From Flavobacteriales bacterium (GTDB lineage Bacteria > Bacteroidota > Bacteroidia > UBA10329), in NCBI GenBank assembly GCA_021741075.1, contig JAIOYO010000002.1, positions 28,848 through 92,847 on the forward strand: a DNA stretch of 64,000 nt, in the 5' to 3' direction. The notes under the pieces were generated by a model that did no database searches, was not told the origin of the DNA, and saw only the letters and a program-made list of their open reading frames with translations. This document shows, one piece after another, positions 20,051 to 51,112 of this stretch (positions are counted from its first letter, which is position 1; each line of letters starts with the position of its first letter). The position numbers and the translations under genes are program-made.

Positions 20051-20055
20051 GGTGC

Positions 20056-23812: not shown

Positions 23813-23815
23813 CCT

Positions 23816-30736: not shown

Positions 30737-30745
30737 CATGTTTAA

Positions 30746-32873: not shown

Positions 32874-34288
32874 CCGAAAAAAAAGGCCTTTCTGTTCTTA
32901 AAACAAAGTCTAGTGATGTTGAGGTTGTTTTCATAAACCCACGAGACTTGGTTGCTTGTGTGCCATATGTAAAGTTAGCCTCACTTGCAGGAACCCTTCG
33001 TGGTAACGGAATCCGCTCCCTTATTATAGAGCCAACGGCTACGAGGCTAAGTACAGCCGATGTGGTTCAACGTATCATTGATATTGATCCTAAAATCGTA
33101 TGTATTGGAGCATTCCCTTCCACTCTTCCTGATGCTTACAAACTAACATGTGAGCTAAAAAAGGAGGTGCCAAATACTACGTTGATACTGGAAGGCTACC
33201 ATGTAAATGCCGACCCTTCGATTCTAGTGGAAATGGATATTGAATGGGGTCTTCGAGGAGATGCTGAGTTGGCATTTGTCAATCTCTGTAAACACATATT
33301 ATCTGGTGAATCGTTTGATAATTCCATTCCAGGACTTGTACATTACATTGGGGGTATACTTAAAGACAATGGGCCAGCAACAATCAAGGATCTTGATTCA
33401 CTGCCCCTGCCCGCTTACGATTTGTTGTCTGTAGAGCGCTACTATTCTGCAAGCACCAACAAGCGATATATGCAGCTGTTCACCACACGTGGCTGTCCGT
33501 ACAATTGTAATTTCTGCGCTAACCCAACACAAATGAGTTTTCGCTATTTGAGCAACGAAAGAGTGCTGCAACACCTTAACGTACTCGTAAAAGACTGCCG
33601 TGTAGAATGGGTGGAATTTATGGATCTAACGTTTACAGTAAATCGCAAACGCACACTGTCTATGTGTCAAGCAATTATTGACTTTGGTGTTCATTTTGAC
33701 TGGGGATGTGAGACCCGAGCAGACTTGATAGATGAAGAATTGTTGTTAAAAATGAAGGACGCGGGTTGCAAAAAAATCACTTTCGGTGTTGAGTCTGGCG
33801 CGGAGCATGTTCGTTTTAGAACGGGAAAGAAAATTACCAATCAGCAGTGCATAGAAGCTTTCGATTTATGTCGAAAGCACGGAGTAAAAACAATGGCCAA
33901 TTTCATTTTCGGCCATCCCAACGAGACAGAATCTGAAATGTGGGAGACCGTACGCTTTGCAGCAAAACTAAAACCGTTCAACGTCATGTTTACGCGAATG
34001 GTGCCTATGCCAGATGTGGAGGTTTATAAATTGGGTATAAAAGAAAAACAATTCGGTTCTGATGTTTGGGTACGGTACATGAAGGGCGAAATAGAACATC
34101 CCACCTATATCCCTAACACCATTGACAAGTCTTTGATGAATAAGATGTACCAATTAGCTTACCTGCGGTACTATCTTTCTTTAAGAGTTATGCGAAGCTA
34201 CCTACCTCTGCTAATTGAACCTAAATTTTTTGTGCAATCAATTATCGTTTTTGGTCGAATGGCCTTCGGAAAACCTGTATTTAAATGA
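32870..34288 (+). CDS. B12-binding domain radical SAM protein (class B rSAM, probable methyltransferase)
   Basis: N-terminal Rossmann-like B12-binding region, then TTRGCPYNCNFCANP (Cx3Cx2C). Confidence 0.65.
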   Translation: MTEKKGLSVLKTKSSDVEVVFINPRDLVACVPYVKLASLAGTLRGNGIRSLIIEPTATRLSTADVVQRIIDIDPKIVCIGAFPSTLPDAYKLTCELKKEVPNTTLILEGYHVNADPSILVEMDIEWGLRGDAELAFVNLCKHILSGESFDNSIPGLVHYIGGILKDNGPATIKDLDSLPLPAYDLLSVERYYSASTNKRYMQLFTTRGCPYNCNFCANPTQMSFRYLSNERVLQHLNVLVKDCRVEWVEFMDLTFTVNRKRTLSMCQAIIDFGVHFDWGCETRADLIDEELLLKMKDAGCKKITFGVESGAEHVRFRTGKKITNQQCIEAFDLCRKHGVKTMANFIFGHPNETESEMWETVRFAAKLKPFNVMFTRMVPMPDVEVYKLGIKEKQFGSDVWVRYMKGEIEHPTYIPNTIDKSLMNKMYQLAYLRYYLSLRVMRSYLPLLIEPKFFVQSIIVFGRMAFGKPVFK

Positions 34289-34812
34289 ACCTACGAAAAA
34301 TCTTTACCTCGTTTTTTAAGTCAGAAAATATTCCGGTTAATTCGATTCACAACTTATCGATTAAAACCCTCGAAGGAGAGCCTTTTTCCTTAAGCCAATT
34401 CAAGGGCAAAAAGCTGCTAATTGTAAATGTGGCTTCTGCATGTGGTCTCACTCCACAGTACGAGCAACTGCAACAGCTTTACGTCAAGTACCATGGCAAA
34501 CTGGAAATTCTAGGTATTCCTTGCAACGATTTTGCTGGGCAAGAACCCGGAACGCCAGAACAGATACTTGAATTCTGTAAAATCAATTATGATGTCTCTT
34601 TTCTGCTAACAGAAAAAGTGAACATTAAAACCGAGCCTATTCATCCGCTATATACTTTTCTTACCAGAAAGGAGAATAATGGGCTTCAAGACTCAGAAGT
34701 AGATTGGAATTTTCAGAAGTATTTGCTTAATGAGCAAGGTGTGTTAATTCAAGTTTTATCACCAGCAACAGAGCCTCTTTCGTCCGAGTTGTGTGCTGCC
34801 ATAGATGCGTAG
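34285..34812 (+). CDS. glutathione peroxidase family protein (Cys-type)
   Basis: LLIVNVASACGLTPQY ... ILGIPCNDFAGQEPG is the classic GPx/BtuE signature, with Cys rather than Sec. Confidence 0.8.
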   Translation: MNLRKIFTSFFKSENIPVNSIHNLSIKTLEGEPFSLSQFKGKKLLIVNVASACGLTPQYEQLQQLYVKYHGKLEILGIPCNDFAGQEPGTPEQILEFCKINYDVSFLLTEKVNIKTEPIHPLYTFLTRKENNGLQDSEVDWNFQKYLLNEQGVLIQVLSPATEPLSSELCAAIDA

Positions 34813-34909
34813 TTTTGAGAAATTCATTCAAATTGGCTTGATTGCAAGTTATATTTGAGACAATGCGATTTTACGGCTACGCGCAATAAATTCCGTTAAT
34901 TACTGGAAA

Positions 34910-36412
34910 ATGGCGAAGGTTCTATTTGTACAAGATATCGTTTACGAATACTTTGGAGTAATGTACATGAGTGCATACCTCAAAAAACATGGCCACGACT
35001 GTGACGTTGTTGTAGAATTTGCAGAAAAAGACTGGATGGAATCCGTGCGCAAGTACAAACCGGATATAATAGCTTTCTCTGTGCTTAGTGGGAGTTACAA
35101 CTGGGCAATCGATCGCGCAACACGATTAAAAAATGAGTTTGGAGCTCCAATCGTTTTCGGAGGCGTTCACGTGTACCTTAACCCAGCAGAAACAATTACC
35201 CAATCCTGTATAGACGCAATATGTATTGGAGAAGGAGAGATTCCGCTTAAAGAGCTGTGCGATGAATTTGATCGGTTAGGTCAAATGCCAAATGATGTAA
35301 AGGGTTTCTGGTTCAAAAACGAAGACGGATCTATACAGAAGAACGCACATCAACGTTTGGTCGAAGACCTTGATAGTCTGCCATTTGCTGATAGAGATAT
35401 CTATTACAAATACCCAAGTATCAAACGAAGAAACATTCTTCCGATGTTAGGCAGTAGAGGATGCCCATATACTTGCTCTTATTGCGTTATTCCAGCGGCT
35501 AAAAAAGTCTTTGAAGGCCAGGGCAAATTCATTCGCGAACGTTCTGCCGAAAGCATTCTAGAAGAGGTAGAGTTTTGCATTTCAAAATCAGACCGAAAGG
35601 AGTTTGTTCATTTTGTTGAGGACCACTTTGGCAATAATCGGCAGCTTGCACTTAAAGTACTACGAGGAATCTCCAAATTAAACAATGGCACGTTGGCATG
35701 GGGAGGTGCGATTAGGGTCGAACGTTTTAATAAGGAAGAATACGTTAAGGAATTAAGCACCACTAATCACGGGCTATTAGGAATTGCTGTAGAGTGTGGC
35801 GATGAAGACTATAGGCGAGACGTATTGAAGAGACCTGTTACAAATGCGCAAATTAGGGAGGCAGCAACTCTTGCTCGAAAATATGGCATTCAATTCGATA
35901 CATTAAATATGATCGGGTTACCAGGGGAAACCTTTGAACAAGCATTGAAAACTCTTGATTTAAACATTGAACTAAAACCCGTATTTGCCAATTGTTACGT
36001 CTACCAACCATATCCTGGGACTGATTTGCAGAAATTTTCCGTTGAACATGGACTCATTGACCCTAAGGTCATAGCAAATATTGGTCTTTCTTTTTACGAC
36101 CGGTATTGGAAAAGCAATAAAGAGCACAATACGATAATAAACCTACAGCGCATTTTTGGACTCGCGGTAAAATTCCCCATTCTCAAACAACCTCTAGTTT
36201 TCATTGCAAGAAAAGACATCCGCCCAATAGCCGATATGATTTTCGGGGCTTATTACATGTGGTGGCTGCTTTATTATTATAAACTGACACTAGGTCAAGT
36301 TGCCAACCTAGTTTACACTTGGACGCGATCCAAGTTCTCATTCCATGATGGCCCAGCGGCCGAGAGCATTAGGCAAGGAGAAGGTCAACTTTATCCTGAC
36401 ATTCGAGAATGA
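34910..36412 (+). CDS. B12-binding domain radical SAM protein (class B rSAM)
   Basis: N-terminal B12-binding-like region, then LGSRGCPYTCSYCVIP (Cx3Cx2C). Confidence 0.65.
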   Translation: MAKVLFVQDIVYEYFGVMYMSAYLKKHGHDCDVVVEFAEKDWMESVRKYKPDIIAFSVLSGSYNWAIDRATRLKNEFGAPIVFGGVHVYLNPAETITQSCIDAICIGEGEIPLKELCDEFDRLGQMPNDVKGFWFKNEDGSIQKNAHQRLVEDLDSLPFADRDIYYKYPSIKRRNILPMLGSRGCPYTCSYCVIPAAKKVFEGQGKFIRERSAESILEEVEFCISKSDRKEFVHFVEDHFGNNRQLALKVLRGISKLNNGTLAWGGAIRVERFNKEEYVKELSTTNHGLLGIAVECGDEDYRRDVLKRPVTNAQIREAATLARKYGIQFDTLNMIGLPGETFEQALKTLDLNIELKPVFANCYVYQPYPGTDLQKFSVEHGLIDPKVIANIGLSFYDRYWKSNKEHNTIINLQRIFGLAVKFPILKQPLVFIARKDIRPIADMIFGAYYMWWLLYYYKLTLGQVANLVYTWTRSKFSFHDGPAAESIRQGEGQLYPDIRE

Positions 36413-37209
36413 CCCGCCTTAAACACGCTAGCAACGCCCCTGAGCTTTGGTTTGCAGATTTCGATGGAACTTATTTAGGAGAGCAAATCGATTTTCTACC
36501 CAAAGAACACGACCCTATATGCCATGAGTTAGAAAAACTATATCCCGAAATCCTTAAGGAAGTCTCTTTCTTGTGGGTAAACCCAAATGCTTTCAATAAT
36601 TATGATTTGTTTGACGACAAACAATTTCCTGTTGGGTCTTGGAAAAAGATAGTGCTCAAAGTCTGGGGTATAACTCTGAAGTCCAATAGCGCGCAATTTC
36701 CCATAATTGCTTCACTGCTTTTAAATTATCGCAAAAGAGTAACCAGTTGTCAAATTACGCGCCTTGCCCCCAACTCTCTAATTAAACCACACTGTGGAGA
36801 AACAAACTCAATTATAAGAATTCACTTAGGTCTCAATGTTCCAGATTGCTCAATAGAGGAGTGTGGAATCAGAGTTGGTGCATCAAAAAAGCAATGGAAC
36901 AACGGAAAAGTGCTTTGCTTTCTGGATGCCACAGACCACGAAGTTTGGAACAATTCACAGTTCTATAGGTATGTCTTAATAGTGGATGTCCTAAGGCCTG
37001 ATTTTCAATCCCGAGCTTCACTCATATGTTCCCGAATTATCATTTCCCAAGCAATTTTCATGGTTCTCATTAGCCTAAGGCTAAAAAAGCTGGCGCAAAT
37101 GATTCCTTCTCAAGTGCTTGCGTTTCTAGCACACATATTTCGATATCCGATAGCCCTTATTTCGTTCATTCTTAATTATCGAATAAATGATAGGGCAAAC
37201 CAACATTGA
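36409..37209 (+). CDS. aspartyl/asparaginyl beta-hydroxylase family Fe/2OG oxygenase (AspH/LpxO-like)
   Basis: HCGETNSIIRIHLGL matches the AspH/LpxO H-x-G-x-T-N-x-x-x-R-x-H-L-G-L motif. Confidence 0.6.
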   Translation: MTRLKHASNAPELWFADFDGTYLGEQIDFLPKEHDPICHELEKLYPEILKEVSFLWVNPNAFNNYDLFDDKQFPVGSWKKIVLKVWGITLKSNSAQFPIIASLLLNYRKRVTSCQITRLAPNSLIKPHCGETNSIIRIHLGLNVPDCSIEECGIRVGASKKQWNNGKVLCFLDATDHEVWNNSQFYRYVLIVDVLRPDFQSRASLICSRIIISQAIFMVLISLRLKKLAQMIPSQVLAFLAHIFRYPIALISFILNYRINDRANQH

Positions 37210-38836
37210 AAAAATGACAGCGTGGTCTAAGCAACGAGTCGAAAGATTCGCTTTAACCCTATTTGCAACAAGCATTTTGTTGTCCGCCATTGCCTATCCT
37301 ATTTGGTTAGGTAGTTCGGTTAATGATAAAGACAAGGCATTTACCGGTGTTGTAGGTCTTTATGCAGATGAATCGTTCTATTATCTTGCTTTAGGACCTG
37401 CAGAGATGACTGATAATCAAAGATTATTTGGTGAGGATAAATTTATGAGGTCTGATAAGGCAATGTTTATAAATCCTATTGGAAACTTCATTGCCTTACT
37501 GTCGCACGTAACCAGATGGGACAATACGACCTCTTTTTTCGTCTACCGAATTATTGCAGCCATATTACTTATGGTTAGTTTTTTGAGGCTCAGCCGCGCT
37601 TTTTTGAGCCAAAAGAAATTTCAGCTATTCGCGCTTCTAATTTTTGCTTTCGGTACTGGTTTAGACACGTGTGTTCCAGGTCTCAATGCTTGCTCTTGGT
37701 CAGTTACGGCACCAGAACTAAACACGTTTATCGCTTGCATTGGCGAGTATTACATTCCTACAGCAACCGCATTGTTTTTATTCTATATAGAGCGGTTATT
37801 GTCGCTCATGAATGCTCCTTGCCCACAGCGAAGAAATCTGCTATTAACTGGCTTGTTGCTGTTCCTCTTAGGGGCGGTGTATGTCTATTCTATGCTAATT
37901 GCCCTGCTAATTACAGCGTCACTACTGATTTATAAGCAAAAAAAACAACCTGCCAAAGGACACAGTTATTGGAAAATTGTAGGTTGGTTAATTCCATTTT
38001 CACTTATAGTCATTGTTTACTACGCTTGGGTATATTTCAACTTGAGTAACGCAGGGCAAGATGAAGGCTGGGTAGTTGGTCCAAGTTTGATGGAAACATT
38101 ACTGACTAATTTTTGGGTTGCCATTCCTGCATTGTTTTTAGTTGTTTTCAGCACAAATAATAATCGTGAGGACAAAGATTGGAAACCTCTTGCTATATGG
38201 GTTGCCACAACACTTCTCATTACCCGAATTCCTCCTCCTTATTTACCTTTTCAAGTTCAAGCTCATGTTGGTTTGTATGCGCCATTATGTTTAATGGCGG
38301 CCACGGGCTTACAAAAATGGTACAACAATAAAAGGCTTAGTCAATTTACCAAGCCGATAGTTCTGTCCCTAAGTATGTTACTACTGTTTTTCTCTGCACT
38401 TCCAAATTGGAACTTTTACGATAAAATGCTAACACGCGTTGAGCAAATGAATTACCCTGAATTTGCGGATAAAGATGAATTGGAAGCATTCAGTTGGATT
38501 CGCGATAATCTCCCTCAGACTGCAACTTTCGCGGTTGTACCTGAGCGAGCTCGCATGCTTGCCGGAACCACCGGATGCCGCGTGTTTTACCGAAACACTC
38601 CTTTTCATGAACTATCTGAAACCACAGAGGTTTTGGCAAATTGGTCAAAAGCGATTGAAAAAAATGACACAAACTGTCCAAGCAGTCTAACACAACATGC
38701 AATATCTCACGTTTTTGCCGAAAAAAAATTTCGCGTCAGTTATCTAGATTCGCTTGGAATAAAAAACATACCGTGTTCCAAAAGCATCTATTCTTCAGGA
38801 GAAGTTACTATTTGGGAGTTAACCAAGCAACCCTAA
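37187..38836 (+). CDS. polytopic integral membrane protein (possible GT-C-like transferase)
   Basis: 549 aa with about 12 TMs and a periplasmic-type C-terminal domain. Confidence 0.4.
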   Translation: MIGQTNIEKMTAWSKQRVERFALTLFATSILLSAIAYPIWLGSSVNDKDKAFTGVVGLYADESFYYLALGPAEMTDNQRLFGEDKFMRSDKAMFINPIGNFIALLSHVTRWDNTTSFFVYRIIAAILLMVSFLRLSRAFLSQKKFQLFALLIFAFGTGLDTCVPGLNACSWSVTAPELNTFIACIGEYYIPTATALFLFYIERLLSLMNAPCPQRRNLLLTGLLLFLLGAVYVYSMLIALLITASLLIYKQKKQPAKGHSYWKIVGWLIPFSLIVIVYYAWVYFNLSNAGQDEGWVVGPSLMETLLTNFWVAIPALFLVVFSTNNNREDKDWKPLAIWVATTLLITRIPPPYLPFQVQAHVGLYAPLCLMAATGLQKWYNNKRLSQFTKPIVLSLSMLLLFFSALPNWNFYDKMLTRVEQMNYPEFADKDELEAFSWIRDNLPQTATFAVVPERARMLAGTTGCRVFYRNTPFHELSETTEVLANWSKAIEKNDTNCPSSLTQHAISHVFAEKKFRVSYLDSLGIKNIPCSKSIYSSGEVTIWELTKQP

Positions 38837-38908: not shown

Positions 38909-40438
38909 TTGTGGTACATAGCCGAAATGTCCGTCAATCAAGAAATCAGTCGATTATTTGAAATTCCGGGTTTAAATCCTGACCGTATAATGTTTAAATA
39001 TGTTAGGCGCGGTGCTGTACAATCGATTACTGGATTGGAAATTGATTCGCGTTCGACTTATTTAGCCTACCAACTCGTTGATGCCGGAATTGAGACTGGA
39101 GATAGAATAATTAGCTTTGTTAAAGACTTGCCCACTTGGAATATTGTCGAATGTGCTGTGCTAAAGTCAGGAGCCATTCACGTCCCGTTGCCAGTGTCCG
39201 TTTCCGAAAACAGACTACTGTCAGTGATAAGCATGGTCCGACCAGTGAAAATCTTGGTCGATTCTGCTGTTCAATTAAGGAGAATTCGTTCAGCATGTTC
39301 GTCATTGCTTGATGCGAATTCTATTTGGTTGGTTCACGAATTAGAGGAAATCGAGAAATCCGAATCCCTTGTAACTGAATTAAACCAACGCATAAACCGC
39401 GTAAAACCACAGAACACGGCCGTCATCCTGTTCACATCTGGAAGCACTGGCGCCTCAAAAGGGGTAATGCTGAGCCATAGAAACATATTGGTTGCTGCAG
39501 AAGAGTTCAGCAAAACAGACGTTTTTCAGGGTATTGACAAGAGCTTAAGTGTTCTTCCCATGAGTCATAGTGCGGCTAGGAAGGTAAATTACGCATGTCA
39601 ACTGAAGGGGATAACCATTTGTTATTCTGCCACAACGATTTCCTTGCTTAAAAACCTCCAATTATTTGAAGTACAGCATGTTGCGCTAGTTCCGTTTCTC
39701 CTTCAAAAACTAAAAAACGAATTAGGAAAAAGCGCTCTCTCAACTCATGAACTTAAAACCATAACCTGCGGTGGCGCTCCTTTATCTGCCGGTCTATGGC
39801 ATTGGTTTGAAAACCTTGGCGTGAACATTTTTGAAGTTTACGGGCTTACCGAAACGGCCTCTCTGCTCACTTACAGCACAAACAAAGTTAGGCGGCCAAA
39901 TTGTGTTGGAATAAAGGCAAAAAATATTGAGATTAGAATAACAGAAAAAAGCGAGCTGGAAGTTAAAGGCCCAACTTTACTTCAAGCATATATGCTCAGC
40001 GATGGGTCAGTCCTAGATGCACTGAATGATAGCGGTTGGTTCAATACTGGCGATAATGTCTCCATAAGTGAGGATGGAGGTGTTCAGGTTACAGGTAGAA
40101 CAACACGCAGTTACAAAACTGAGCGTGGAAATTTTCTCCACCCAGAAGACATTGAGCGTTCGCTAGTGTCTTTATCAGGTGTAGAGGAAGCCTATTTAAT
40201 CGATGATTCGTTGAAGCCGTTGAAGGTAGTACTAGTGACTTCCGAAGCAGTGCCTATTGATTACATTCACAAACAGATAAGGCAATACAACCACGGAAAA
40301 ACAGAAGACCTACAAATAGATTCTTTCTCCGTTTTGAACTCGAATTCCATCAGGAAATTCCGAAAAATAGGGGAGATGAAACTGGAGAAACATACCTTCA
40401 CAAAAATGATGAGGAATCAAAAGTTCACCAAAATTTGA
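38909..40438 (+). CDS. AMP-dependent synthetase/ligase (acyl-AMP/acyl-ACP ligase-like)
   Basis: ILFTSGSTGASKGVMLSHRN (AMP-binding motif I) and downstream YGLTE / GWFNTGD motifs. Confidence 0.75.
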   Translation: MWYIAEMSVNQEISRLFEIPGLNPDRIMFKYVRRGAVQSITGLEIDSRSTYLAYQLVDAGIETGDRIISFVKDLPTWNIVECAVLKSGAIHVPLPVSVSENRLLSVISMVRPVKILVDSAVQLRRIRSACSSLLDANSIWLVHELEEIEKSESLVTELNQRINRVKPQNTAVILFTSGSTGASKGVMLSHRNILVAAEEFSKTDVFQGIDKSLSVLPMSHSAARKVNYACQLKGITICYSATTISLLKNLQLFEVQHVALVPFLLQKLKNELGKSALSTHELKTITCGGAPLSAGLWHWFENLGVNIFEVYGLTETASLLTYSTNKVRRPNCVGIKAKNIEIRITEKSELEVKGPTLLQAYMLSDGSVLDALNDSGWFNTGDNVSISEDGGVQVTGRTTRSYKTERGNFLHPEDIERSLVSLSGVEEAYLIDDSLKPLKVVLVTSEAVPIDYIHKQIRQYNHGKTEDLQIDSFSVLNSNSIRKFRKIGEMKLEKHTFTKMMRNQKFTKI

Positions 40439-40680
40439 ATTGCCCTTTGGAATTAACGCGTTTCATAGCATTACTAGCTTCAGAGTTTGACGATTTGGAC
40501 CCCAACATCATTGGGTCAGACAGTGTTTACAAGGAAGTGATCGAGTGGAACTCCATTAACTCGGTGGTGCTGTCCGTGATTATAGAGGCTGAGTTTGGGG
40601 TTTTACTTGAAAAGGAAGATTACCAGAAGGCCGTTACCGTTGCTGAATTACTTGAGTTGATTCAAACAAAAAGTGATTGA
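40435..40680 (+). CDS. acyl carrier protein-like (phosphopantetheine-binding)
   Basis: 81 aa, acidic, four-helix pattern. Candidate attachment Ser in IEWNSINSV. Coupled by a 4-nt overlap to the ligase. Confidence 0.5.
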   Translation: MNCPLELTRFIALLASEFDDLDPNIIGSDSVYKEVIEWNSINSVVLSVIIEAEFGVLLEKEDYQKAVTVAELLELIQTKSD

Positions 40681-40686
40681 AACTAA

Positions 40687-41709
40687 ATGGATAACGTTCG
40701 AATTGTCAGTATTGGGGCGGCCGTTCCTCAGAAAAAACTTCTGAGCTCTCAGGTTTCTTTCGAATCTGATGAAACAAGAAGTCAGTTTATCCGACAAGTT
40801 GGCGTTACAGAAAAGCGTTACTCACAAAACCGGCTTACAGCAGGAGACCTGTGCTTCTCGGCAGCACAAAAGTTGCTCACCGAGGTTGCATGGGATCCTT
40901 CTACAATTGGAGTTGTAATACTAGTCACGCAGTCGCCCGACAGACTTATGCCTGCAACGGCCATCTTATTGCAGGAAAAATTAGGATTGCCTTCTTCGTG
41001 CTTGGCGTTCGACATTAACTTAGGTTGCTCTGGTTGGGTATATGGGCTATCTGTGGTTAGTTCGCTAATGCAAACACTAAAAATTGACCGAGGTTTGCTG
41101 TTGGCTGGCGAAACGGCAGTGCTCGCTTCTGAAGATGATACAAGCTATTTCCCACTCATGGGTGATGCAGGAACCGCTACCGTTTTGGAACTGTCTATGC
41201 ATTCCGAACCTATGGTTTTCCAGTTCTACTCTGACGGAAGCCAGTTTGAGGCCATACATGCCCCCAACAGTGGTGCTCGCCATTTTGCAGATGGCGGAAC
41301 AGAAGCCGCCCAAAAGTACCGAGCTCAAATGGATGCGGATCAGGTATTGCGCTTTTGCTTGCGCGATGTGGTGCCAAACATACATTCCTTCTTGAACCAG
41401 CTGAATGTTACAGTTCAAGAAATAGATTACTTCGTATTCCATCAGGCCAACAAGCTCATTAACGAAGCTATGCGCAAAAAACTTAACATCCCAGAGGAAA
41501 AGTTTCCCTACTCTATTGGTCAATTTGGTAATACCTCATCTGCATCTATTCCACTTACCATGGTAACGCAGCTTCGCGAGCAAATGGCACATAAACAAAC
41601 GTTGCTTTGCTCTGGCTTCGGAGTTGGGCTTTCTATGGGACACGTGCTATTACACACAGAGAACATTATTTGCCATCCAATAATAGAGGTCGCAATTCCT
41701 GAAAAATGA
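40687..41709 (+). CDS. 3-oxoacyl-ACP synthase III (FabH/KAS III family)
   Basis: AFDINLGCSGWVYGL (active-site Cys) ... HQANKLIN (His) ... GNTSSASIP (Asn). These are the FabH Cys-His-Asn triad motifs. Confidence 0.75.
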   Translation: MDNVRIVSIGAAVPQKKLLSSQVSFESDETRSQFIRQVGVTEKRYSQNRLTAGDLCFSAAQKLLTEVAWDPSTIGVVILVTQSPDRLMPATAILLQEKLGLPSSCLAFDINLGCSGWVYGLSVVSSLMQTLKIDRGLLLAGETAVLASEDDTSYFPLMGDAGTATVLELSMHSEPMVFQFYSDGSQFEAIHAPNSGARHFADGGTEAAQKYRAQMDADQVLRFCLRDVVPNIHSFLNQLNVTVQEIDYFVFHQANKLINEAMRKKLNIPEEKFPYSIGQFGNTSSASIPLTMVTQLREQMAHKQTLLCSGFGVGLSMGHVLLHTENIICHPIIEVAIPEK

Positions 41710-42266
41710 AAATAAGTCACGGAAATACCGTACTCCGCAGCCTTGAAAACAAAGACCTTGAACGTGTGCGAAGCTGGCGCAATAACGAATCCGTAAACCA
41801 GCACCTTCTGAACAGGGAATACATCTCTATAGAGGCGCAGGCAAAGTGGTTCGAAAATATTGATGCTGAAACATCCCTTTATTGTATTGCAGAGGAAAGT
41901 GGCGTTCCTTTCGGATTGATTTACGCAACTGAAATAAACAAGGGAAAACGAACTTTTTGGGGAAACGTCTTAGTCGGGGAGCCTGCGTTTCGTAGCTCTG
42001 CTTTGCCTGTAAAGGCAGTGGTTATGCTCATGTGGTACTTTTTAGAAAATTTGGGGTTTGAAACCTGTTTTTCCAAGGTTGCGACTAGCAACTCTTCGGC
42101 ATTGCAACTAAATCAGCGACTCGGTTTTTTAACATTCAAAAAAGAAGGCGGCCTTTCGATTCAACGTTGTGAACGAGCACTGTACCATTCCAAGGCAGCA
42201 CGATTCTGGAAACCCCTGCTCGCCCACCATCAAATACGAGTATTTCAATCTGAACTTGATTTATGA
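41706..42266 (+). CDS. GNAT-family N-acyltransferase
   Basis: 186 aa with RimL/WecD-like GNAT fold pattern (..QLNQRLGF.. acyl-CoA binding motif A region). Confidence 0.55.
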   Translation: MKISHGNTVLRSLENKDLERVRSWRNNESVNQHLLNREYISIEAQAKWFENIDAETSLYCIAEESGVPFGLIYATEINKGKRTFWGNVLVGEPAFRSSALPVKAVVMLMWYFLENLGFETCFSKVATSNSSALQLNQRLGFLTFKKEGGLSIQRCERALYHSKAARFWKPLLAHHQIRVFQSELDL

Positions 42267-45200
42267 TGAGACCATTCTTTTTTCTGGTAGGGATAACGGT
42301 ACTATTTGTGTCTTGCGGCACACTACCGAATAAAAAGACCAAAGGGCCAATGTTTGAAGCTCTTTCCCCTCAGCAATCTGGTATTTTCTTTTCGAACGTG
42401 CTAGACGATACGCGCAGCATTCCTTCTGGGGCAGATTCATTAATGGAAAACCTCCCGTGGGGGATTAATGAGCTTATGTATAACTATGCTGGCGGGGGTG
42501 TTTCTGTAGCTGATATTAACAACAATGGGCTACCAGATATTTTCTTCACCAGCAATCAAGGAGAAGGAGCTCTTTACCTGAATTTGGGCGATTTTCGCTT
42601 CCAAGACATAACAAAGGAGTCCGGTTTAACATATCCTGCTGCGTGGGTTACAGGAACAGTGATGGCCGATGTAAATGGTGACGGCTTTATGGACATTTAT
42701 GTGTGTAGAGCGGGTAAGAAACCAATGTCAAACACCAGTAATCTTCTGTTTATCAATAACGGTAATCTAACATTTACTGAGCGAGCTGCCGAATATGGTC
42801 TCAACGATATTGGTCTGACTACAAGCGCCTCATTCTTCGACATGGATTTAGACGGAGATTTGGACGTCTATGTTTTGAACCAGCCTATTTTCGGTGAAGA
42901 AGACCCCACTAGTTTTCAATTTGAAATTTTACTTCCGCATGATTCATTAAGTGCCGACCGTCTTTATGAGAATGTTGGAAATCGATTTGTTGATGTGACG
43001 TTCCAAGCTGGACTACCGGTCGAAAAGGGCTCTGGTTTGGGCATCACCATATCAGATTTAGATATGGATGGCCTTCCAGACATTTTTGTGGCAAACGATT
43101 GGATTACGAATGATTTCGTTTACATCAATCAGGGTAACGGCAAATTTGAGAATCAGTGTGAAGAACTACTGCCACGAAATAGTTTTTTCAGCATGGGATG
43201 TGACATTGCAGATGTAGACAACAACGGCCGCCCAGATGTATTTGTATGCGATATGGCTCCGTATTCGCATTACAGAAGAAACATGATTCTTAACGGTGCA
43301 CCACAAGAGTATTATCAATTGCAAAAACGGTATAAAGGAGTAATGCAGTATAGTCGTAACATGCTTCATCTCAATTACCAAGGAGGTTTTCAGGAAACAG
43401 GAAATATGCACGGAATAGCACGCACAGATTGGAGCTGGAGCCCCCTTCTTGTGGATTTGGATAATGATGGTCTGAAAGACCTTTTCGTTACCAACGGCAT
43501 GAAACGAGATGTTGGAAATATGGACTTTGAAATGCTGATGTATGCGGACCTTGAAGGCGAGAGTTATAAAAGAGAGCGTGCCGAGCTAGTAAAAAACTAC
43601 CCGGTTTACAGGCTCCCCAATAGGGCCTTCCGCAACAATAGTGCTGGTCGCTGGATAGATGTGACAGATTCGTGGGGATTTGGCGGCCCTTTGAATACAC
43701 AAGGATCCGCTTATGCCGACCTAGACCTTGACGGAAACATCGACCTGATTTTGAATCCAACGGACAGTGTAGCACGCATTTACAAAAACCACGGAGATGA
43801 GAACAACCATCTGTCCATCAAAATACTAGGAGCAGGAAAAAACACATTAGGGCTAGGAACTAAAGTTTGGCTATTCAACAACGGAGAAACACATTTTTGT
43901 GAGCTTTCTAATGCACGCGGGTTTCAATCGTCTTCAGAACCCATTATTCATTTCGGGGTGGGAAAAGCTACTCTTATTGACAGTATTCGTGTGGTTTTTC
44001 CTTTGGGGTCTTATCAGGTATTGAAAAACGTACCTGTCCAGCAACGGATTACACTTACGGAAAATGGTTCAAACCCTCAACATTTGATTCCACTGGAAGA
44101 CGCAAATGATACTTGGTCAAACGCTACACACCGAATTATACCTGCTTTTAAACATAATCAACCCGACTTTTTTGACTTTGCTAGAGATAAGACTGCGTTT
44201 AGAATGTTTTCCCGTGAGGGACCGGCACTTGTGGTTGCAGACGTAAATGGCGACCTCCGCCAAGACTTTTTTGTAGGCGGCCAAGCCGGACAGCCATCAA
44301 GAATTTACATCCAAACTACATCGGGAGAATTCTTGTTGTCTAACCAACCAGAAATTGAAGCCGATAGCACATCGGCTGACGTAGACGCGGTTATTGTAGA
44401 CCTTAATGCAGACGGTTATCCCGATCTCTACGTGGCTAGTGGAAGTAACCTGTTCCCTATTAGTGACGAGCGCTACCTTGACCGGCTTTATTTGAACAAT
44501 GGCAAGGGTCAGTTTAAACGGTGCAAAGACTGCTTAGAAGACATCCGTGTAAGTTCGGGATGTGTTGCTGCTCATGACGTGGATGATGACGGAATTCCTG
44601 AATTATTTGTAGGAGGTAGGGTAGTTCCTGGGACAGAAGGAATCATTCCCGAAAGCTACTTGCTTCAAAATTCAAACGGACGTTTTAGCTCAACTAGTAA
44701 TACGATTATTAAGAATCTACCAAGTGTTGGAATGGTAACTGACGCAATTTGGCATGACCTCAATACTGACGGAGAAAAAGAACTCATTGTGACATGTGAG
44801 TGGGAATCGCCAAAAGTGTACAAGTGGTCAAAAAATGTCTTCACAGAGTCCGCGGCTGAATTCGGCATAAATCTGCCAAACGGACTGTGGACGAGTATTT
44901 CCGTTTGCGATGCAAATGCCGATGGTAAACAAGACCTCTTGTTTGGAAATTGGGGGCTTAACTCCATCCTGACCGCAGACGTAAAGAAACCACTAAAGCT
45001 CTTAATCAACGATTTTGACGGAAACGGAAAGCAAGAGCCACTGTTATGCATCTATTTGAACGACACCTTAGACTCGTTCCTCGGGAGAAACGAAATCTGT
45101 GGAGCAATGCCGCAATTCTGGAGAAAGTACAACACCTACCAAAGTTTTGCGACCACACCACTAACTAATAAGTTTGGATTGGCGACAATTGATAATTCTG

Positions 45201-45574
45201 AGTATCGAACTGTAAATGAACTCCAATCTACCCTTATGATGAACAGTGAGTCTGGCAAATACACACAAAAATCATTGCCTTTTGGTTGTCAAGCAGCTTC
45301 AATTAATGCAGCTATTACGTTAAATGGCGACAAACGCCCTATTCTATTCGGAGGTAACGAAAGTTTGCATTATACCGAGGGAGCAATTGATGCGCTCGGG
45401 GTTCGACTTCTCAGCTTGTCTGAATCAAATATCTTGCAAATACAGTCACCTAAACTAGGCGAGTTATTTCCATTATTCCGCAATGTGAGTAGCGCAGAAA
45501 TTATTTCCATTAATGGGGAGGAGTTCATTCTTGTCGCACGGCCATCAAATGAGTTGTTACTAGTAAAGCCTTGA
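42263..45574 (+). CDS. CRTAC1-family lipoprotein: multiple FG-GAP/VCBS repeats plus ASPIC/UnbV domain
   Basis: Lipobox VLFVSCGT. Many D-x-N-x-DG-x-x-D loops (DINNNGLPDIF, DVNGDGFMDIY, DMDLDGDLDVY ...) and a central UnbV_ASPIC-like segment (GLGTKVWLFNNGETHFCE...). Paralog of 14593..16989. Confidence 0.65.
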   Translation: MMRPFFFLVGITVLFVSCGTLPNKKTKGPMFEALSPQQSGIFFSNVLDDTRSIPSGADSLMENLPWGINELMYNYAGGGVSVADINNNGLPDIFFTSNQGEGALYLNLGDFRFQDITKESGLTYPAAWVTGTVMADVNGDGFMDIYVCRAGKKPMSNTSNLLFINNGNLTFTERAAEYGLNDIGLTTSASFFDMDLDGDLDVYVLNQPIFGEEDPTSFQFEILLPHDSLSADRLYENVGNRFVDVTFQAGLPVEKGSGLGITISDLDMDGLPDIFVANDWITNDFVYINQGNGKFENQCEELLPRNSFFSMGCDIADVDNNGRPDVFVCDMAPYSHYRRNMILNGAPQEYYQLQKRYKGVMQYSRNMLHLNYQGGFQETGNMHGIARTDWSWSPLLVDLDNDGLKDLFVTNGMKRDVGNMDFEMLMYADLEGESYKRERAELVKNYPVYRLPNRAFRNNSAGRWIDVTDSWGFGGPLNTQGSAYADLDLDGNIDLILNPTDSVARIYKNHGDENNHLSIKILGAGKNTLGLGTKVWLFNNGETHFCELSNARGFQSSSEPIIHFGVGKATLIDSIRVVFPLGSYQVLKNVPVQQRITLTENGSNPQHLIPLEDANDTWSNATHRIIPAFKHNQPDFFDFARDKTAFRMFSREGPALVVADVNGDLRQDFFVGGQAGQPSRIYIQTTSGEFLLSNQPEIEADSTSADVDAVIVDLNADGYPDLYVASGSNLFPISDERYLDRLYLNNGKGQFKRCKDCLEDIRVSSGCVAAHDVDDDGIPELFVGGRVVPGTEGIIPESYLLQNSNGRFSSTSNTIIKNLPSVGMVTDAIWHDLNTDGEKELIVTCEWESPKVYKWSKNVFTESAAEFGINLPNGLWTSISVCDANADGKQDLLFGNWGLNSILTADVKKPLKLLINDFDGNGKQEPLLCIYLNDTLDSFLGRNEICGAMPQFWRKYNTYQSFATTPLTNKFGLATIDNSEYRTVNELQSTLMMNSESGKYTQKSLPFGCQAASINAAITLNGDKRPILFGGNESLHYTEGAIDALGVRLLSLSESNILQIQSPKLGELFPLFRNVSSAEIISINGEEFILVARPSNELLLVKP

Positions 45575-45578
45575 GTTT

Positions 45579-46931
45579 TTACTCAGCCGCAACAAGCCGT
45601 TTAAGCACGTGTTGACCAATCTTTTTTCCTTGTGCGATGCCGTCATCATTAGAAAAACGATAATGAATTCCACCGTATAGACGGCTGTTTGCCACTTCGT
45701 CTGAAGCCTCTTTAAAACTACCGAATGACCTAGGCGTTTTGCCGAAAGGAACCTCAAGGCTATCGGTGAATGCATAATTATTTCCAAAAAATTCAGTTAA
45801 AACCGTGGATGCTGCAGCAGAAATAGCGCTGTGTCCGCTAGTGTAGTCTGGAAAATGTGGGGTTTCAAGCAATGGTCTCCACTTAGGATCTATGTATCTG
45901 TTTATATACGTCTCTGGCCGTATCAATTGATAATGGTATTTGGTGTCCCACACGGAAATAAATCCATCGTGAAGCGCAATAGCCGTTATGGCGGTCCTAA
46001 ATGAGCTTTCGTGAAGGTCTAAGTTCTGTACTGTGCAAGCATTTCGAACCAAACCTATCCAGTGAGCCCCTGGGCTCATTTGCCGAACGGCCCTAATGGC
46101 ATGACCATCCCTCTTAGTGAGATATGGATTGCAATCCCAAAAATTCGCAATCTCCCGCTGTTCTAGCGTCAGTGTTTCAACTGTTTGTTGTACCTCTTTG
46201 GCGTAGTTATAGAATTCCGAACTTGAATCCGCGGAAAAAGTCACCCGAAAATCTGGTCTGTAAACCGAAGGTGAGTCCAATACGAAAGACCTAATCTTAT
46301 GCCACCAAGGGTCTAAGGCTTCGGAATACTTGGGTGGTGTTGGTTCCCATGCCCATGGCTCGTTTATAGTTACATACCGTGGCAGTGCTCGCATCTCAGC
46401 GAAACCATCTGCACGCATCCATTTAAGCAAATGCTCTTCTAGTTTACGGCATATTTCCATGGTGTATTCCACCTTATGGTTGCCGTATAAAGAACTAATT
46501 GAATCTGTGAAATGGGCGCTTAATTCATCTATCAATTGTGGATGAAAAACCCCCTCTCTCGCTAAAGAACAGAAAGCGTGTATTACCGCTAGTTCTACCA
46601 CATAATTGCTTGTATCCACATCCAAATCTGGAACACCATAGCCATTCAATCTTCCTGAAAAACCATTGTACTTGTTCTGCTTAATTGCAGTTGCTTCAAA
46701 GGCGGCTATGTTCGCATAAGCAAAGCACCTAGCTGCAGCAGGTGGCGAAAGGGTTCCAGCTATGGTTGCCTCGGTAAGCCGATGGTTTATTCGATTCAAA
46801 AGTTCATTGTTGCGTTTATTTGACTCCATCAACGAACCCACCTTGTGGTCACACCCATTGTGCGTCAAGGCCAAAAGCAGCAGACCAATCGAGATGAACG
46901 TTTTGTTGAGGGCTTGGATAAATTCAATCAT
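45579..46931 (-). CDS. PAP2-superfamily protein, vanadium-dependent haloperoxidase-like
   Basis: Three PAP2/V-HPO motifs in order: KYHYQLIRP (KxxxxxxRP), PDYTSGHS (PSGH), SRLYGGIHYRFSND (SRxxxGxH...D), preceded by a helical N-terminal domain of about 280 aa. Lipoprotein signal. Confidence 0.5.
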   Translation of the reverse strand: MIEFIQALNKTFISIGLLLLALTHNGCDHKVGSLMESNKRNNELLNRINHRLTEATIAGTLSPPAAARCFAYANIAAFEATAIKQNKYNGFSGRLNGYGVPDLDVDTSNYVVELAVIHAFCSLAREGVFHPQLIDELSAHFTDSISSLYGNHKVEYTMEICRKLEEHLLKWMRADGFAEMRALPRYVTINEPWAWEPTPPKYSEALDPWWHKIRSFVLDSPSVYRPDFRVTFSADSSSEFYNYAKEVQQTVETLTLEQREIANFWDCNPYLTKRDGHAIRAVRQMSPGAHWIGLVRNACTVQNLDLHESSFRTAITAIALHDGFISVWDTKYHYQLIRPETYINRYIDPKWRPLLETPHFPDYTSGHSAISAAASTVLTEFFGNNYAFTDSLEVPFGKTPRSFGSFKEASDEVANSRLYGGIHYRFSNDDGIAQGKKIGQHVLKRLVAAE

Positions 46932-48556: not shown

Positions 48557-48602
48557 AAGTGCAAACAAGCAGTACTGCTTGAGTTAGAGTTGCTTCATAA
48601 GA

Positions 48603-51034: not shown

Positions 51035-51112
51035 AGGAGCGACTAATTGGTCTTTTGATGCTTTGAGAAACATTTTATACCTACACGCCAACATTCATAC
51101 AGATTTAGCCGG

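Follow-up and report, generated by a model that had tools for sequence, protein, structure and literature searches.

Four tightly packed plus-strand genes in an uncultured marine Flavobacteriales genome appear to serve as the dedicated acyl-donor module of a pathway for a surface glycan or a lipid-linked sugar, a reading to which we assign a probability of about 0.55. Most likely, a special acyl group is made on the module's own ACP and ends up on an amino sugar in a surface glycan. The genes encode a ligase, an ACP, a KAS III, and a GNAT, and were found by an ORF scan of a 64,000-nucleotide stretch of DNA (the window).

Gene organization and genomic context

The four genes have intact catalytic motifs and are translationally coupled. 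They are consecutive (Table 1), as the initial annotation had described. It had called all of them overlapping, which holds for ligase/ACP and KAS III/GNAT (4 nt each, the ligase stop codon overlapping the ACP start), whereas ACP and KAS III are separated by a 6-nt gap. The 3' end of the GNAT gene shares 4 nt with the next gene.

Table 1 Features of the window discussed in the text.
Feature	Position	Strand	Match or remark
Ligase ORF	38909-40438	+	Pfam AMP-binding
ACP	40435-40680	+	PP-binding, 81 aa
KAS III	40687-41709	+	ACP_syn_III, ACP_syn_III_C
GNAT	41706-42266	+	Acetyltransf_4, _3, _8 (Pfam)
Wzm-like ABC-2 permease	28173-29036	+	ABC2_membrane
Double PhyH protein	29099-30736	+	Between permease and ATPase
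Wzt/TagH-like ATPase	about 30746-32092	+	TagH, Wzt models, 94-96 bits
Short ArnC-like GT2, catalytic domain only	32127-32873	+	Same operon as module
B12-binding radical SAM genes (two)	32870-34288, 34910-36412	+	Pfam B12-binding, Radical_SAM; flank glutathione peroxidase gene
OlsC/LpxO-like Fe/2OG hydroxylase	36409-37209	+	Asp_Arg_Hydrox E 7e-36; OlsC 75 bits, LpxO 45 bits
Polytopic membrane protein	37187-38836	+	Weak Dpy19 match, E 0.0024
DegT/WecE-like sugar aminotransferase	55482-56612	+	DegT_DnrJ_EryC1 E 1.6e-63
Full-length ArnC/PgfS-like polyprenyl-phosphate GT2	56539-57552	+	PgfS 127 bits, ArnC 109 bits, whole model length
WecE-family dTDP-4-amino-4,6-dideoxyhexose aminotransferase	11422-12552	-	NF008687, 505 bits vs cut-off 375
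PgfS/ArnC-like GT2	10594-11331	-	Adjoins aminotransferase 11422-12552

The initial annotation is partly supported: its outline is largely right and some details are wrong. What is borne out is a dedicated, non-housekeeping acyl module in which an ACP of its own and a KAS III of the condensing type are coupled to an N-acyltransferase. The pathway had also been called self-contained, which it is not: scans of the window ORFs of at least 150 aa (a set from which two ORFs nested in longer opposite-strand genes were left out) reveal neither a ketoreductase nor a malonyl or phosphopantetheinyl transferase. Nor does the window contain a dehydratase, a nucleotidyltransferase, or a 4,6-dehydratase, and no pse genes lie near the module.

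Several genes upstream of the module recur with it. Homologues of the radical SAM/glutathione peroxidase block (32870-36412) are present in every related locus, making the block a conserved companion of the module; its radical SAM proteins have BchE, HpnJ, ApyD, and AprD4 as nearest NCBIfam models, all far under their cut-offs. The hydroxylase, a candidate tailoring enzyme for the acyl group, has homologues accompanying the module or a sister cassette in L004, L005, L012, L023, L026, L039, L058, L093, and L094. The membrane protein could possibly be a GT-C-type periplasmic glycosyltransferase, as its faint Dpy19 similarity hints; it has homologues in L002, L004, and L012 and no match in a PDB sequence search. 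At a similar place, L005 encodes a large membrane protein with a weak PMT_2 match, and homology between the two was not detected. The permease-PhyH-ATPase order recurs in L012. Elsewhere in the window, small ORFs adjoin a MacB-type exporter.

Properties of the four proteins

The ligase matches Pfam AMP-binding with an E-value of 4.9e-54. Position 38909 is merely the earliest TTG that could serve as start; both the gene caller and a 70%-identical orthologue begin at ATG 38927, which is likely the true start and gives a protein of 503 aa with the N-terminus MSVNQEI. The motifs TSGST/S, YGLTET, GW..TGD, and GR.....K..G are invariant across five ligase orthologues, and by sequence the protein is classed as an ANL-family adenylate-forming enzyme. 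It reaches no specific family in NCBIfam, the best model being MenE (164 bits vs a cut-off of 330). The ligases of L005 and L095 stop shortly past motif A8, at 395-407 aa, which is odd for an adenylating enzyme. The product would most simply be an ACP-loaded acyl group, or else a CoA ester.

Alone, the ACP scores 19.1 bits on Pfam PP-binding, slightly under the threshold of 20.8, and a profile built from eight family members matches solved ACPs with an E-value of 3.6e-8. Residues Trp38 and Ser40 of a W-x-S motif (W-N-S here) are invariant across the eight members, those of sister cassettes included. Ser40 is the putative phosphopantetheine site.

KAS III matches ACP_syn_III_C (E 4.8e-26) and ACP_syn_III (E 9.2e-13), and its Cys114/His252/Asn282 triad is intact and invariant in 18 homologues. 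Among solved structures, the orphan Burkholderia KAS III 4efi scores best (183 bits), ahead of E. coli FabH (95 bits) and the still detectable ZhuH (PDB 1mzj, 80 bits). The initial annotation had raised grouping with housekeeping FabH, in a cell with no other fabH, as a finding that would speak against it. Instead, KAS III falls under both NCBIfam FabH cut-offs (212.9 vs 249 and 175.2 vs 292.1 bits), and in a neighbour-joining tree it nests, away from E. coli FabH, among the KAS III genes that glycan loci carry downstream of a dedicated ACP. By these comparisons, KAS III is assigned to a glycan-cluster clade and not to housekeeping FabH. A single, provisional alignment with E. coli FabH puts M, M, and A at the sites of its pocket residues F87, F157, and L205, and its CoA-adenine residues W32 and R151 are not kept.

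The sole clear NCBIfam match for the GNATs of the window, L004, and L093 is PseH, on which the window protein scores 55.8 bits, under the cut-off of 93.1. PDB sequence matches comprise SpeG enzymes, which are on top, FdhC (E 7e-6), and PseH (E 3.5e-3), with identities of just 14-18% to the latter two. Foldseek searches with the AF2 model (pLDDT 90) retrieve FdhC (5ktc, TM-score 0.79), PseH (4ri1, 0.77), and SpeG (~0.73), all with E-values of ~1e-11; SpeG tops the list, and FdhC has the highest query-normalised TM-score. Sequence and predicted fold thus place the protein among PseH/FdhC/SpeG-like N-acyltransferases. It had been described as WecD type, a label that has to be dropped, since the WecD model gives no match at E<=1e-3 in NCBIfam. 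Kinship with ribosomal-protein acetylases, a concern raised earlier, is not seen either, the RimJ, RimL, and RimI models being unmatched.

The GNAT family comprises 557 clusters (50% identity) at E<=1e-30. In an alignment of 19 members, the usual glycine-rich CoA pyrophosphate loop is, by our reading, absent. The missing loop, the tight gene coupling, and the precedent of SbzI, a GNAT dependent on a carrier protein (PMC11685415), suggest that the acyl donor is ACP rather than CoA.

Related loci and a probable glycosyltransferase partner

The ligase-ACP-KAS III order is kept in six independent related loci (KAS III identity 44-81%), indicating that the arrangement is no chance effect. The GNAT gene comes next after KAS III in most of the six and lies elsewhere within the locus in L004. 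In the clade of the window KAS III (seven loci including the window, with the gene content of L095 taken from the Pfam gene table only), the ligase is always present and a ketoreductase never. The wider KAS III clade is represented by 33 metagenome loci with enough flanking DNA, which contain a ketoreductase (33/33), an ACP (28/33), a second KAS III (27/33), a DegT aminotransferase (17/33), an ArnC-like GT2 (13/33), and a GNAT of this family (10/33). The slot upstream of the ACP is occupied by the ligase in the window clade and by the second KAS III in 11 of the sister-cassette genes that can be placed. L005 also carries a second KAS III, of sister-cassette type.

Gene adjacency, the arrangement in L004, and protein fusions link the GNAT family to ArnC-like polyprenyl-phosphate GT2s. 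In sister cassettes, that of cultured Parvicella tangerina included, the GT2 and GNAT genes are adjacent or overlapping, and two GT2-GNAT fusion proteins were found. In L004, a DegT fragment (162 aa), the GNAT orthologue (37% identity, E 8e-51), and an ArnC-like GT2 follow one another, with Ugd and a sugar SDR adjoining. In L095, an FdtA ketoisomerase gene abuts the module, FdtA and a GT2 being divergent from ligase-ACP-KAS III-GT2-GNAT. No DegT gene occurs within 10 kb of the sister cassettes of L093 and L094.

In the window, the short GT2 has ArnC as its best NCBIfam match (59.9 bits, model positions 6-227 of 316). Its homologues adjoin the GNAT gene in L095 and L004, and it shares homology with the GT2 portion of the fusion protein P0314 (E 7e-11). 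It is likely the partner of the GNAT. WecE-like aminotransferases had been reported elsewhere in the window, and they are present, 13 and 27 kb from the module. The minus-strand enzyme passes the WecE cut-off; the plus-strand enzyme is WecE-like and stays under it (322 bits vs 375). The latter is a candidate source of the amino-sugar acceptor. It forms with the next GT2 a pair kept in L002/L003, and the orthologue of that GT2 adjoins FdtA in L095.

An amino sugar is the best-supported acceptor of the GNAT. The proposed N-acylation of such a sugar gains from the PseH/FdhC kinship, the sugar-gene neighbours, and the GT2-GNAT fusions; on the other side, SpeG, which acts on polyamines, is no more distant than the sugar GNATs in sequence and fold, so the acceptor remains presumptive. 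Also on that side are the missed PseH cut-off, the lack of pse genes nearby, the 13- and 27-kb distances to the aminotransferase genes, the absence of a nucleotidyltransferase or 4,6-dehydratase from the window, the 10 kb free of DegT around the L093 and L094 sister cassettes, and the fragmentary DegT of L004.

Proposed pathway, alternatives, and known systems

The observed gene identities, conserved catalytic residues, gene order, and GNAT-GT2 link are compatible with the following pathway. The ligase would adenylate a carboxylic acid for which the cell has no common CoA ester and pass it to the module, most simply onto the adjacent ACP. KAS III would add one malonyl unit to this primer, giving a 3-oxoacyl-ACP, and as the module has no ketoreductase, the 3-oxo group would be retained unless tailored later. 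That the ligase supplies the primer is suggested by its constant presence in a clade devoid of ketoreductase, its position in the slot of the second KAS III, and the altered FabH pocket and CoA-adenine residues. The GNAT would then take the acyl group over from the ACP and acylate the amino nitrogen of a sugar that is linked to a nucleotide (or to polyprenyl phosphate) and owes its amino group to a DegT/WecE-type aminotransferase. Finally, an ArnC-like GT2 would link the N-acylated sugar to polyprenyl phosphate, so that it can be used beyond the cytoplasm. The acid, its chain length, the choice of ACP over CoA as acyl donor, the sugar, and the order of acylation and lipid-carrier transfer are conjectural.

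With the same acyl-ACP supply, the GNAT might acylate a non-sugar amine, namely a polyamine, an amino-acid or amino-lipid head group, or a peptide. We regard this as unlikely. The SpeG enzymes heading both search lists would fit a polyamine, yet the GNAT scores 27 bits on the SpeG model against a cut-off of 218. Hydroxylases of the OlsC/LpxO type, whose substrates are lipid acyl chains, accompany the module, and radical SAM and PhyH tailoring enzymes abound in the window; against this, the fusions and the near-constant GT2-GNAT adjacency bind the GNAT family to a sugar-transferring enzyme, with DegT, Ugd, and the sugar SDR (L004) and FdtA (L095) as neighbours. For a peptide acceptor there is precedent in lipidated ribosomal peptides, to which GNATs attach fatty acyl groups (PMC8784127), but no precursor-peptide candidate was found, at least three of the four small ORFs at 19164-20942 encoding signal-peptide proteins.

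Two further alternatives concern KAS III. It is distinctly unlikely that the enzyme is non-elongating and serves for priming or transfer, moving the acyl group activated by the ligase onto or off the ACP, with the GNAT transferring the unextended acid. KAS III-like acyltransferases occur in natural-product pathways, the residues that bind CoA in E. coli FabH are not conserved, and the window offers no ketoreductase, dehydratase, or malonyl transferase. However, the full Cys-His-Asn triad that decarboxylative condensation requires is invariant, and a ketoreductase always follows the orthologous KAS III in the sister clade, implying a 3-oxo product. An ordinary fatty-acid initiation operon (fabH, acpP, acyl-CoA synthetase) beside an unrelated acetyltransferase is very improbable. 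KAS III is indeed FabH-like, with 213 bits on the NCBIfam 'KAS 3' subfamily model and weak DarB and OleA scores, but it fails both FabH cut-offs, and the ACP scores only ~20 bits on the NCBIfam AcpP models (cut-offs 66-71). Moreover, fabD, fabG, and fabF were not found near the module, which is translationally coupled into a glycan/tailoring operon conserved across distant loci, and L005 has its second KAS III.

The preferred reading, an acyl-donor module acting on an amino sugar, has counterparts in known systems, of which the wfp genes of Flavobacterium psychrophilum and the viosamine island of Pseudomonas syringae come nearest. In the same bacterial class, Flavobacterium psychrophilum wfpC-wfpG likewise combine a dedicated ACP, KAS III, and an N-acyltransferase. 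For their KAS-ACP-KAS-KR set, the predicted product is the 3,5-dihydroxyhexanoyl N-acyl group of the O-antigen; the functions are themselves predictions, the acyl group being built on ACP and then transferred onto a nucleotide 4-amino sugar (PMC6519341). This order is exactly that of the wider clade of the window KAS III (compared by description), which in this respect is also similar to the viosamine island. In the module, the ligase takes the slot of the first KAS III (wfpC), the ketoreductase (wfpF) is missing, and the transferase is a GNAT instead of a PglD-type left-handed-helix enzyme.

Two Pseudomonas islands, the viosamine island of P. syringae and the flagellin glycosylation island of P. 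aeruginosa PAK, likewise place KAS III, ACP, and an N-acyltransferase next to a DegT-type aminotransferase (PMC3927599). The former (vioA, vioS, vioR, acp, vioB) makes dTDP-N-(3-hydroxybutanoyl)viosamine, and the roles of vioR, vioA, vioB, and vioT are backed by mutant mass spectrometry (PMC3927599). The viosamine island has a ketoreductase and no ligase, the reverse of the module, and its target is flagellin, whereas the module lies in an ABC-transporter and polyprenyl-phosphate GT2 glycan locus. VioB is not known to be a GNAT. GNAT-fold enzymes that N-acylate nucleotide-linked amino sugars are FdhC (Acinetobacter nosocomialis; PDB 5kta, 5ktc) and PseH (4ri1, 4xpk). FdhC, a nucleotide-sugar N-3-hydroxybutanoyl transferase, is among the closest solved relatives of the module GNAT. 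It has CoA bound in its structure and therefore uses acyl-CoA, whereas acyl-ACP is proposed here.

The module resembles in logic the Ara4N pathway of lipid A modification (ArnA formyltransferase domain, ArnC, ArnT), in which a nucleotide 4-amino sugar is N-acylated, transferred by a GT2 to undecaprenyl phosphate, and used outside the cytoplasm. L004 unites an Ara4N-like set of Ugd, ArnA-C-terminal-like SDR, DegT fragment, GNAT, and GT2. ArnC is the best NCBIfam match for the GNAT-linked GT2s, yet at 60-135 bits against an equivalog cut-off of 529. The Ara4N acyl group comes from formyl-tetrahydrofolate, whereas that of the module would come from KAS III/ACP via the GNAT; no deformylase-like gene was identified in this comparison. 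Type II polyketide and aryl-polyene pathways also use an acid:ACP ligase, a dedicated ACP, and a KAS III to supply a non-acetate starter (EncN and ZhuH/ZhuG are examples). Unlike those systems, the module has no ketosynthase/chain-length-factor pair, cyclase, or other polyketide genes, and its product would go to a GNAT in a glycan locus. Modules of this kind have already been predicted in fish and plant pathogens; the make-up found here, with a ligase, no ketoreductase, and a GNAT, is new.

Composition and conservation of the module

The module lies near the late end of a long forward-strand gene run (~14.6 to 45.6 kb). Its G+C content resembles that of the surroundings, and the source organism is uncultured and known from assemblies only. 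All four genes that the initial annotation placed at 38909-42266 are seen on the forward strand. They had been described as overlapping: ligase and ACP, KAS III and GNAT, and GNAT and the next gene share 4 nt each, but the ACP and KAS III genes are 6 nt apart.

The ligase ORF encodes an AMP-binding domain (Pfam, E 4.9e-54), and its ANL motifs are kept in an alignment of five orthologues. ATG 38927 is a likelier start than TTG 38909, the first possible one. The ACP (81 aa) alone falls slightly under the Pfam PP-binding threshold. Its family, however, has an invariant Trp-x-Ser motif in eight members, with Ser40 as the invariant serine, and the family profile matches solved acyl carrier proteins (E 3.6e-8). 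The KAS III matches both KAS III domains, and the GNAT matches several GNAT families (Pfam).

The order ligase-ACP-KAS III is kept in six independent loci, with homologues at 44-81% identity. The GNAT comes next in most of these and is placed elsewhere in L004. Companions in these loci include B12 radical SAM, Asp/Arg-hydroxylase-like and GT2 genes and large membrane proteins. With the single KAS III, a scan of genome contigs yields no more than two distant loci, its peptide patterns being too specific. A metagenome scan with a KAS III alignment returns 80 loci (KAS III identity 34-46%), of which 33 have enough flanking DNA for gene counts. These sister loci have a FabG-like ketoreductase in all cases (33/33), an ACP in 28 and a second KAS III in 27. 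A DegT aminotransferase lies within 10 kb in 17, an ArnC-like GT2 is found in 13, a GNAT of the same family in 10 and a distant ligase in 7.

The window clade differs consistently from its sisters: a ligase replaces the second KAS III, and the ketoreductase is absent. In all seven loci counted, including the window and L095 (a related locus counted from its Pfam gene table only), the ligase sits upstream of the ACP, where many sister cassettes have the second KAS III, and there is no ketoreductase. No ketoreductase homologue is found by BLAST in the related loci L002-L006 and L012, or in the gene table of L095. The module had also been called self-contained. This does not hold, as ketoreductase, malonyl transferase and phosphopantetheinyl transferase genes, as well as dehydratase genes, are not found among the window ORFs of at least 150 aa; the scan took in every such ORF except two inside longer opposite-strand genes. 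The same ORFs include no nucleotidyltransferase or sugar 4,6-dehydratase, and fabD, fabG and fabF are not found within the 64-kb window.

In the window but outside the module, a DegT aminotransferase is twice paired with a polyprenyl-phosphate-type GT2; the WecE gene is 27 kb and the DegT gene 13 kb from the module. A DegT fragment adjoins the GNAT gene in L004, and a DegT gene is 9 kb away in L002 and L003.

Coordinates of features in the window and in related loci
Feature	Locus	Position	Strand	Remarks
HipA C-terminal domain fragment	window	21-494		157 aa; covers positions 80-213 of the 213-position model; ORF starts mid-domain-model, close to window edge
GT2	window	10594-11331	-	partner of WecE aminotransferase
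WecE aminotransferase	window	11422-12552	-	above WecE cut-off
FG-GAP/ASPIC proteins	window		+	first in forward-strand run
MacB-type exporter	window		+	after FG-GAP/ASPIC proteins
Four small ORFs	window	19164-20942	two per strand	147-148 aa; beside MacB-type ABC exporter
Five PhyH dioxygenase genes	window	22093-26210; 29099-30736	+	after MacB-type exporter
PhyH-methyltransferase fusion	window	23816-25384	+	one of the PhyH genes
Double-PhyH protein	window	29099-30736	+	between Wzm and Wzt; also in L012
Wzm- and Wzt-like ABC transporter parts	window		+	after PhyH genes
Wzt-like ATPase frame	window	30734-31060	+	
Short ArnC-like GT2	window		+	after Wzm/Wzt-like parts
Two B12-binding radical SAM enzymes	window		+	after short GT2
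Glutathione peroxidase	window		+	listed after B12-binding radical SAM enzymes
OlsC/LpxO-like hydroxylase	window		+	before large membrane protein
Large membrane protein	window		+	directly ahead of module in listed order
Ligase	window	38909-40438	+	module
ACP	window	40435-40680	+	module
KAS III	window	40687-41709	+	module
GNAT	window	41706-42266	+	module
Large FG-GAP/ASPIC-UnbV and PAP2/vanadium-chloroperoxidase-like proteins	window	42263-46931		adjoin module
Stretch with cytochrome bd subunit I-like gene	window	47261-52021		subunit II not recognisable; small ~62-aa ORF upstream
WecE-like aminotransferase	window	55482-56612	+	below WecE cut-off
GT2	window	56539-57552	+	partner of WecE-like aminotransferase
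Three radical SAM genes	window	59698-63916		SPASM-like domain N-terminal to radical SAM core
FG-GAP/ASPIC-UnbV and PAP2-like pair	L004	1-7067		beside module
FG-GAP/ASPIC-UnbV and PAP2-like pair	L012	11580-16236		beside module
bd-like, cytochrome c and LPG_synthase_TM-family genes	L002	13819-17330		also together in L003
Short ligase	L005	8516-9703		
Short ligase	L095	8481-9704		
Four-gene PhyH run including fusion, as in window	L095	1898-5975		
KAS III, ACP, KAS III, KR, ArnC-like GT2, GNAT cassette	L093	6032-16634		Parvicella tangerina OU015584.1; also L058, L094

Several neighbouring features are recorded here in their own right. From 30746 onwards the frame of the Wzt-like ATPase is open, and from 30791 it can be aligned to its L012 orthologue, with no ATG, GTG or TTG until 31058. 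An ATG at 30738 is in a different frame, immediately ahead of an A6 run (30744-30749), which suggests a 1-nt indel, an assembly error or a non-canonical start. The FG-GAP/ASPIC-UnbV and PAP2-like pair adjoins the module in three loci, and the start of its FG-GAP/ASPIC-UnbV gene overlaps the GNAT stop in the window and L012. Cytochrome c and LPG_synthase_TM-family genes occur without the bd-like gene in L004 and L012. In the radical SAM genes near the window end, the SPASM-like match (residues about 23-103) precedes the core (136-312), an unusual domain order. A 549-aa membrane protein has no match in a PDB sequence search, so its GT-C assignment remains weak.

KAS III and ligase

The initial annotation allowed for a KAS III that is simply the housekeeping FabH. 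The protein scores under both NCBIfam FabH cut-offs (212.9 versus 249 bits for NF006829; 175.2 versus 292.1 bits for TIGR00747). In a neighbour-joining tree, it groups with KAS III genes directly downstream of an ACP; E. coli FabH and most of the paralogues that lie upstream of the ACP fall elsewhere. Judged by family profiles, then, the KAS III is not housekeeping FabH. Among solved structures, an orphan KAS III of Burkholderia scores best (4efi, 183 bits; E. coli FabH, 95 bits), and matches to DarB and OleA are weak or partial.

The catalytic triad of Cys114, His252 and Asn282 is kept in all 18 homologues aligned (45-100% identity). These residues align with C112, H244 and N274 of the E. coli FabH sequence used, which matches published numbering at eight checked positions. 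In E. coli FabH, Trp32 and Arg151 surround the adenine of acetyl-CoA, and Phe87 closes the pocket. Against this reference, the window KAS III has Gln, Thr and Met at these three positions, which vary across the KAS III clade; this is weak evidence that the primer site is not kept. At positions 87, 157 and 205 of the pocket, its residues are smaller.

A fatty acyl-AMP ligase (FAAL) passes its acyl group to a carrier protein, and a FAAL-specific insertion blocks CoA ligation. Residues 23-352 of the ligase, in its N-terminal domain, align with positions 8-363 of the Pfam AMP-binding model, the only reference used; the shorter span argues against a large insertion. The ligase gene overlaps that of the adjoining ACP. 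The ligases of L005 and L095 have only 395-407 aa, stop right after motif A8 and are without most of the C-terminal subdomain. Adenylating enzymes normally need this subdomain, and the short ligases count against a simple picture of the module.

The GNAT family and its acceptor

The GNAT had been assigned to the WecD type. Only the PseH and SpeG models match it at E<=1e-3 (NCBIfam), and WecD does not. PseH (TIGR03585), the sole clear match, is reached at 55.8 bits, below the cut-off of 93.1; PseB, PseF, PseG and PseI are not found in the window, and the PseC model is only a lower-ranking match of the WecE-like genes. A ribosomal-protein acetylase, the other outcome foreseen, is rejected, as no RimJ, RimL or RimI equivalog matches in NCBIfam and only the broad Pfam Acetyltransf_3 does (33.6 bits); the 'RimJ/RimL' labels given by JGI to GNAT relatives are without family-model support.

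A polyamine acceptor is harder to set aside. By sequence, the solved relatives of the GNAT are SpeG, FdhC and PseH. In a Foldseek search with the confident AF2 model (pLDDT 90), SpeG, MJ1062, PseH and FdhC appear at about equal E-values. SpeG structures are the top matches, though the SpeG equivalog is rejected at 27.1 versus 218 bits. The highest query-normalised TM-scores belong to FdhC (0.79), a nucleotide-linked sugar GNAT with CoA and a 3-hydroxybutanoylamino sugar bound according to its PDB titles, and PseH (0.77). The nearly equal E-values mean that the fold does not decide between sugar and polyamine, and the claimed amino-sugar acceptor is not proven, with SpeG left equally close by sequence and Foldseek. 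The abundance of radical SAM and hydroxylase genes also suggested lipidation of a RiPP. No precursor candidate was found, and of the four small ORFs beside the MacB-type exporter at least three encode signal-peptide proteins. The idea is retained only within a rival reading, acylation of a non-sugar amine by the GNAT. These four ORFs have zero Pfam matches; three have signal-peptide-like N-termini, and the two on the forward strand are apparent paralogues.

Genomic context separates a sugar from a polyamine acceptor better than the fold does. In L004, the orthologous GNAT (37% identity, E 8e-51) lies between the DegT fragment and an ArnC-like GT2, with Ugd and a sugar SDR resembling the ArnA C-terminal domain and UXS as neighbours. 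L095 carries an FdtA ketoisomerase gene and a GT2 gene that diverge from a ligase-ACP-KAS III-GT2-GNAT run; FdtA was sought in the window and all loci and detected only there. In sister cassettes the GT2 is full-length and ArnC-like, with the GNAT directly after it (for example in L058, L094 and L093, from the cultured Parvicella tangerina). A single-sequence word-indexed search finds 5 GNAT homologues, and a profile is required for more; an exhaustive profile search gives 557 clusters (50% identity) at E<=1e-30. In two members, P0314 (414 aa) and P0370 (425 aa), the GNAT is naturally fused to the catalytic domain of an ArnC-like GT2, and the GT2 half of these proteins is homologous to the short GT2 of the window. 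Fusion and adjacency tie the GNAT family to a sugar-to-polyprenyl-phosphate transferase.

The L093 cassette is followed by four OlsC/LpxO-like hydroxylase and three sulfotransferase genes, with fewer in L058 and L094. We found no literature description of this Bacteroidota cassette. The wider conserved cluster and its GT2-GNAT family, uncharacterised so far, could contain new chemistry.

A putative route to N-acylated amino sugars

In GNATs, a glycine-rich loop usually holds the CoA pyrophosphate. By our own reading of the alignment, the GNAT family is without this loop. Acyl-ACP would be the donor to the GNAT, given the missing loop, the tight gene coupling and the precedent of SbzI, a known carrier-protein-dependent GNAT (PMC11685415). 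Three features suggest that the ligase would provide a primer bigger than acetyl: its gene precedes that of the ACP, the KAS III does not keep the FabH residues around the CoA adenine, and its pocket residues are smaller. The KAS III would extend this primer one time. Since a ketoreductase is lacking, this step would yield a 3-oxoacyl group, a possible substrate for the hydroxylase, radical SAM and PhyH enzymes encoded nearby.

The concept of a dedicated acyl supply for amino sugars is already in the literature. In Flavobacterium psychrophilum, wfpC (KAS), wfpD (ACP), wfpE (KAS), wfpF (KR) and wfpG (PglD-like transferase) are predicted to build and attach the 3,5-dihydroxyhexanoyl group that Qui2NAc4NR carries (PMC6519341). 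The viosamine island of Pseudomonas syringae (vioS, vioR, acp, vioB) makes N-(3-hydroxybutanoyl)viosamine, with support from mutants (PMC3927599). Aeromonas flagellin glycosylation islands have ACP, ketoreductase and AMP-dependent synthetase genes (orf1-orf3) downstream of pseH (PMC7874193). As in the wfp and vio cassettes, the window has a dedicated ACP beside the KAS III and an N-acyltransferase gene, whose start overlaps the KAS III stop codon. In contrast to them, it has a ligase and no 3-oxoacyl-ACP reductase (no SDR is among the window ORFs scanned), and the left-handed-helix transferase gives way to a GNAT, whose fold class is unlike that of the PglD homologue WfpG. The association with ArnC-like GT2 enzymes recalls the Ara4N pathway. 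Literature searches found no paper that joins KAS III, ACP, GNAT and amino sugar in just this way, and only general fatty-acid papers on 3-hydroxybutyryl and O-antigen clusters. The initial interpretation stands in outline; its WecD-type GNAT and self-contained module do not, and the acceptor is unproven.

Tentatively, with a probability of roughly 0.3, the module and the sister cassettes may represent a widespread, uncharacterised Bacteroidota pathway. The products of a carrier-protein-dependent GNAT and an ArnC-like GT2, sometimes fused, would be amino sugars that are linked to polyprenyl phosphate and bear an N-(3-oxo- or 3-hydroxyacyl) group. LpxO-like hydroxylases, B12 radical SAM enzymes, PhyH dioxygenases or sulfotransferases would then modify these products, which would serve to decorate the envelope outside the cytoplasm. 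If true, the pathway would bring new chemistry and be the acyl counterpart of the Ara4N system.

The N-acyl groups of amino sugars shape O-antigen serotypes, flagellin glycans and host and phage recognition, and the enzymes for unusual ones are mostly predictions so far. The variant would broaden the supply routes: the ligase would select the primer, a single condensation without reduction would follow, and the GNAT would probably recognise a carrier protein. Direct experimental access is possible through the GT2-GNAT fusions and through the cassette of cultured Parvicella tangerina. The cell-surface chemistry of marine Bacteroidota is poorly known, and, if the polyprenyl-phosphate link holds, these bacteria would have an Arn-like route of envelope modification.
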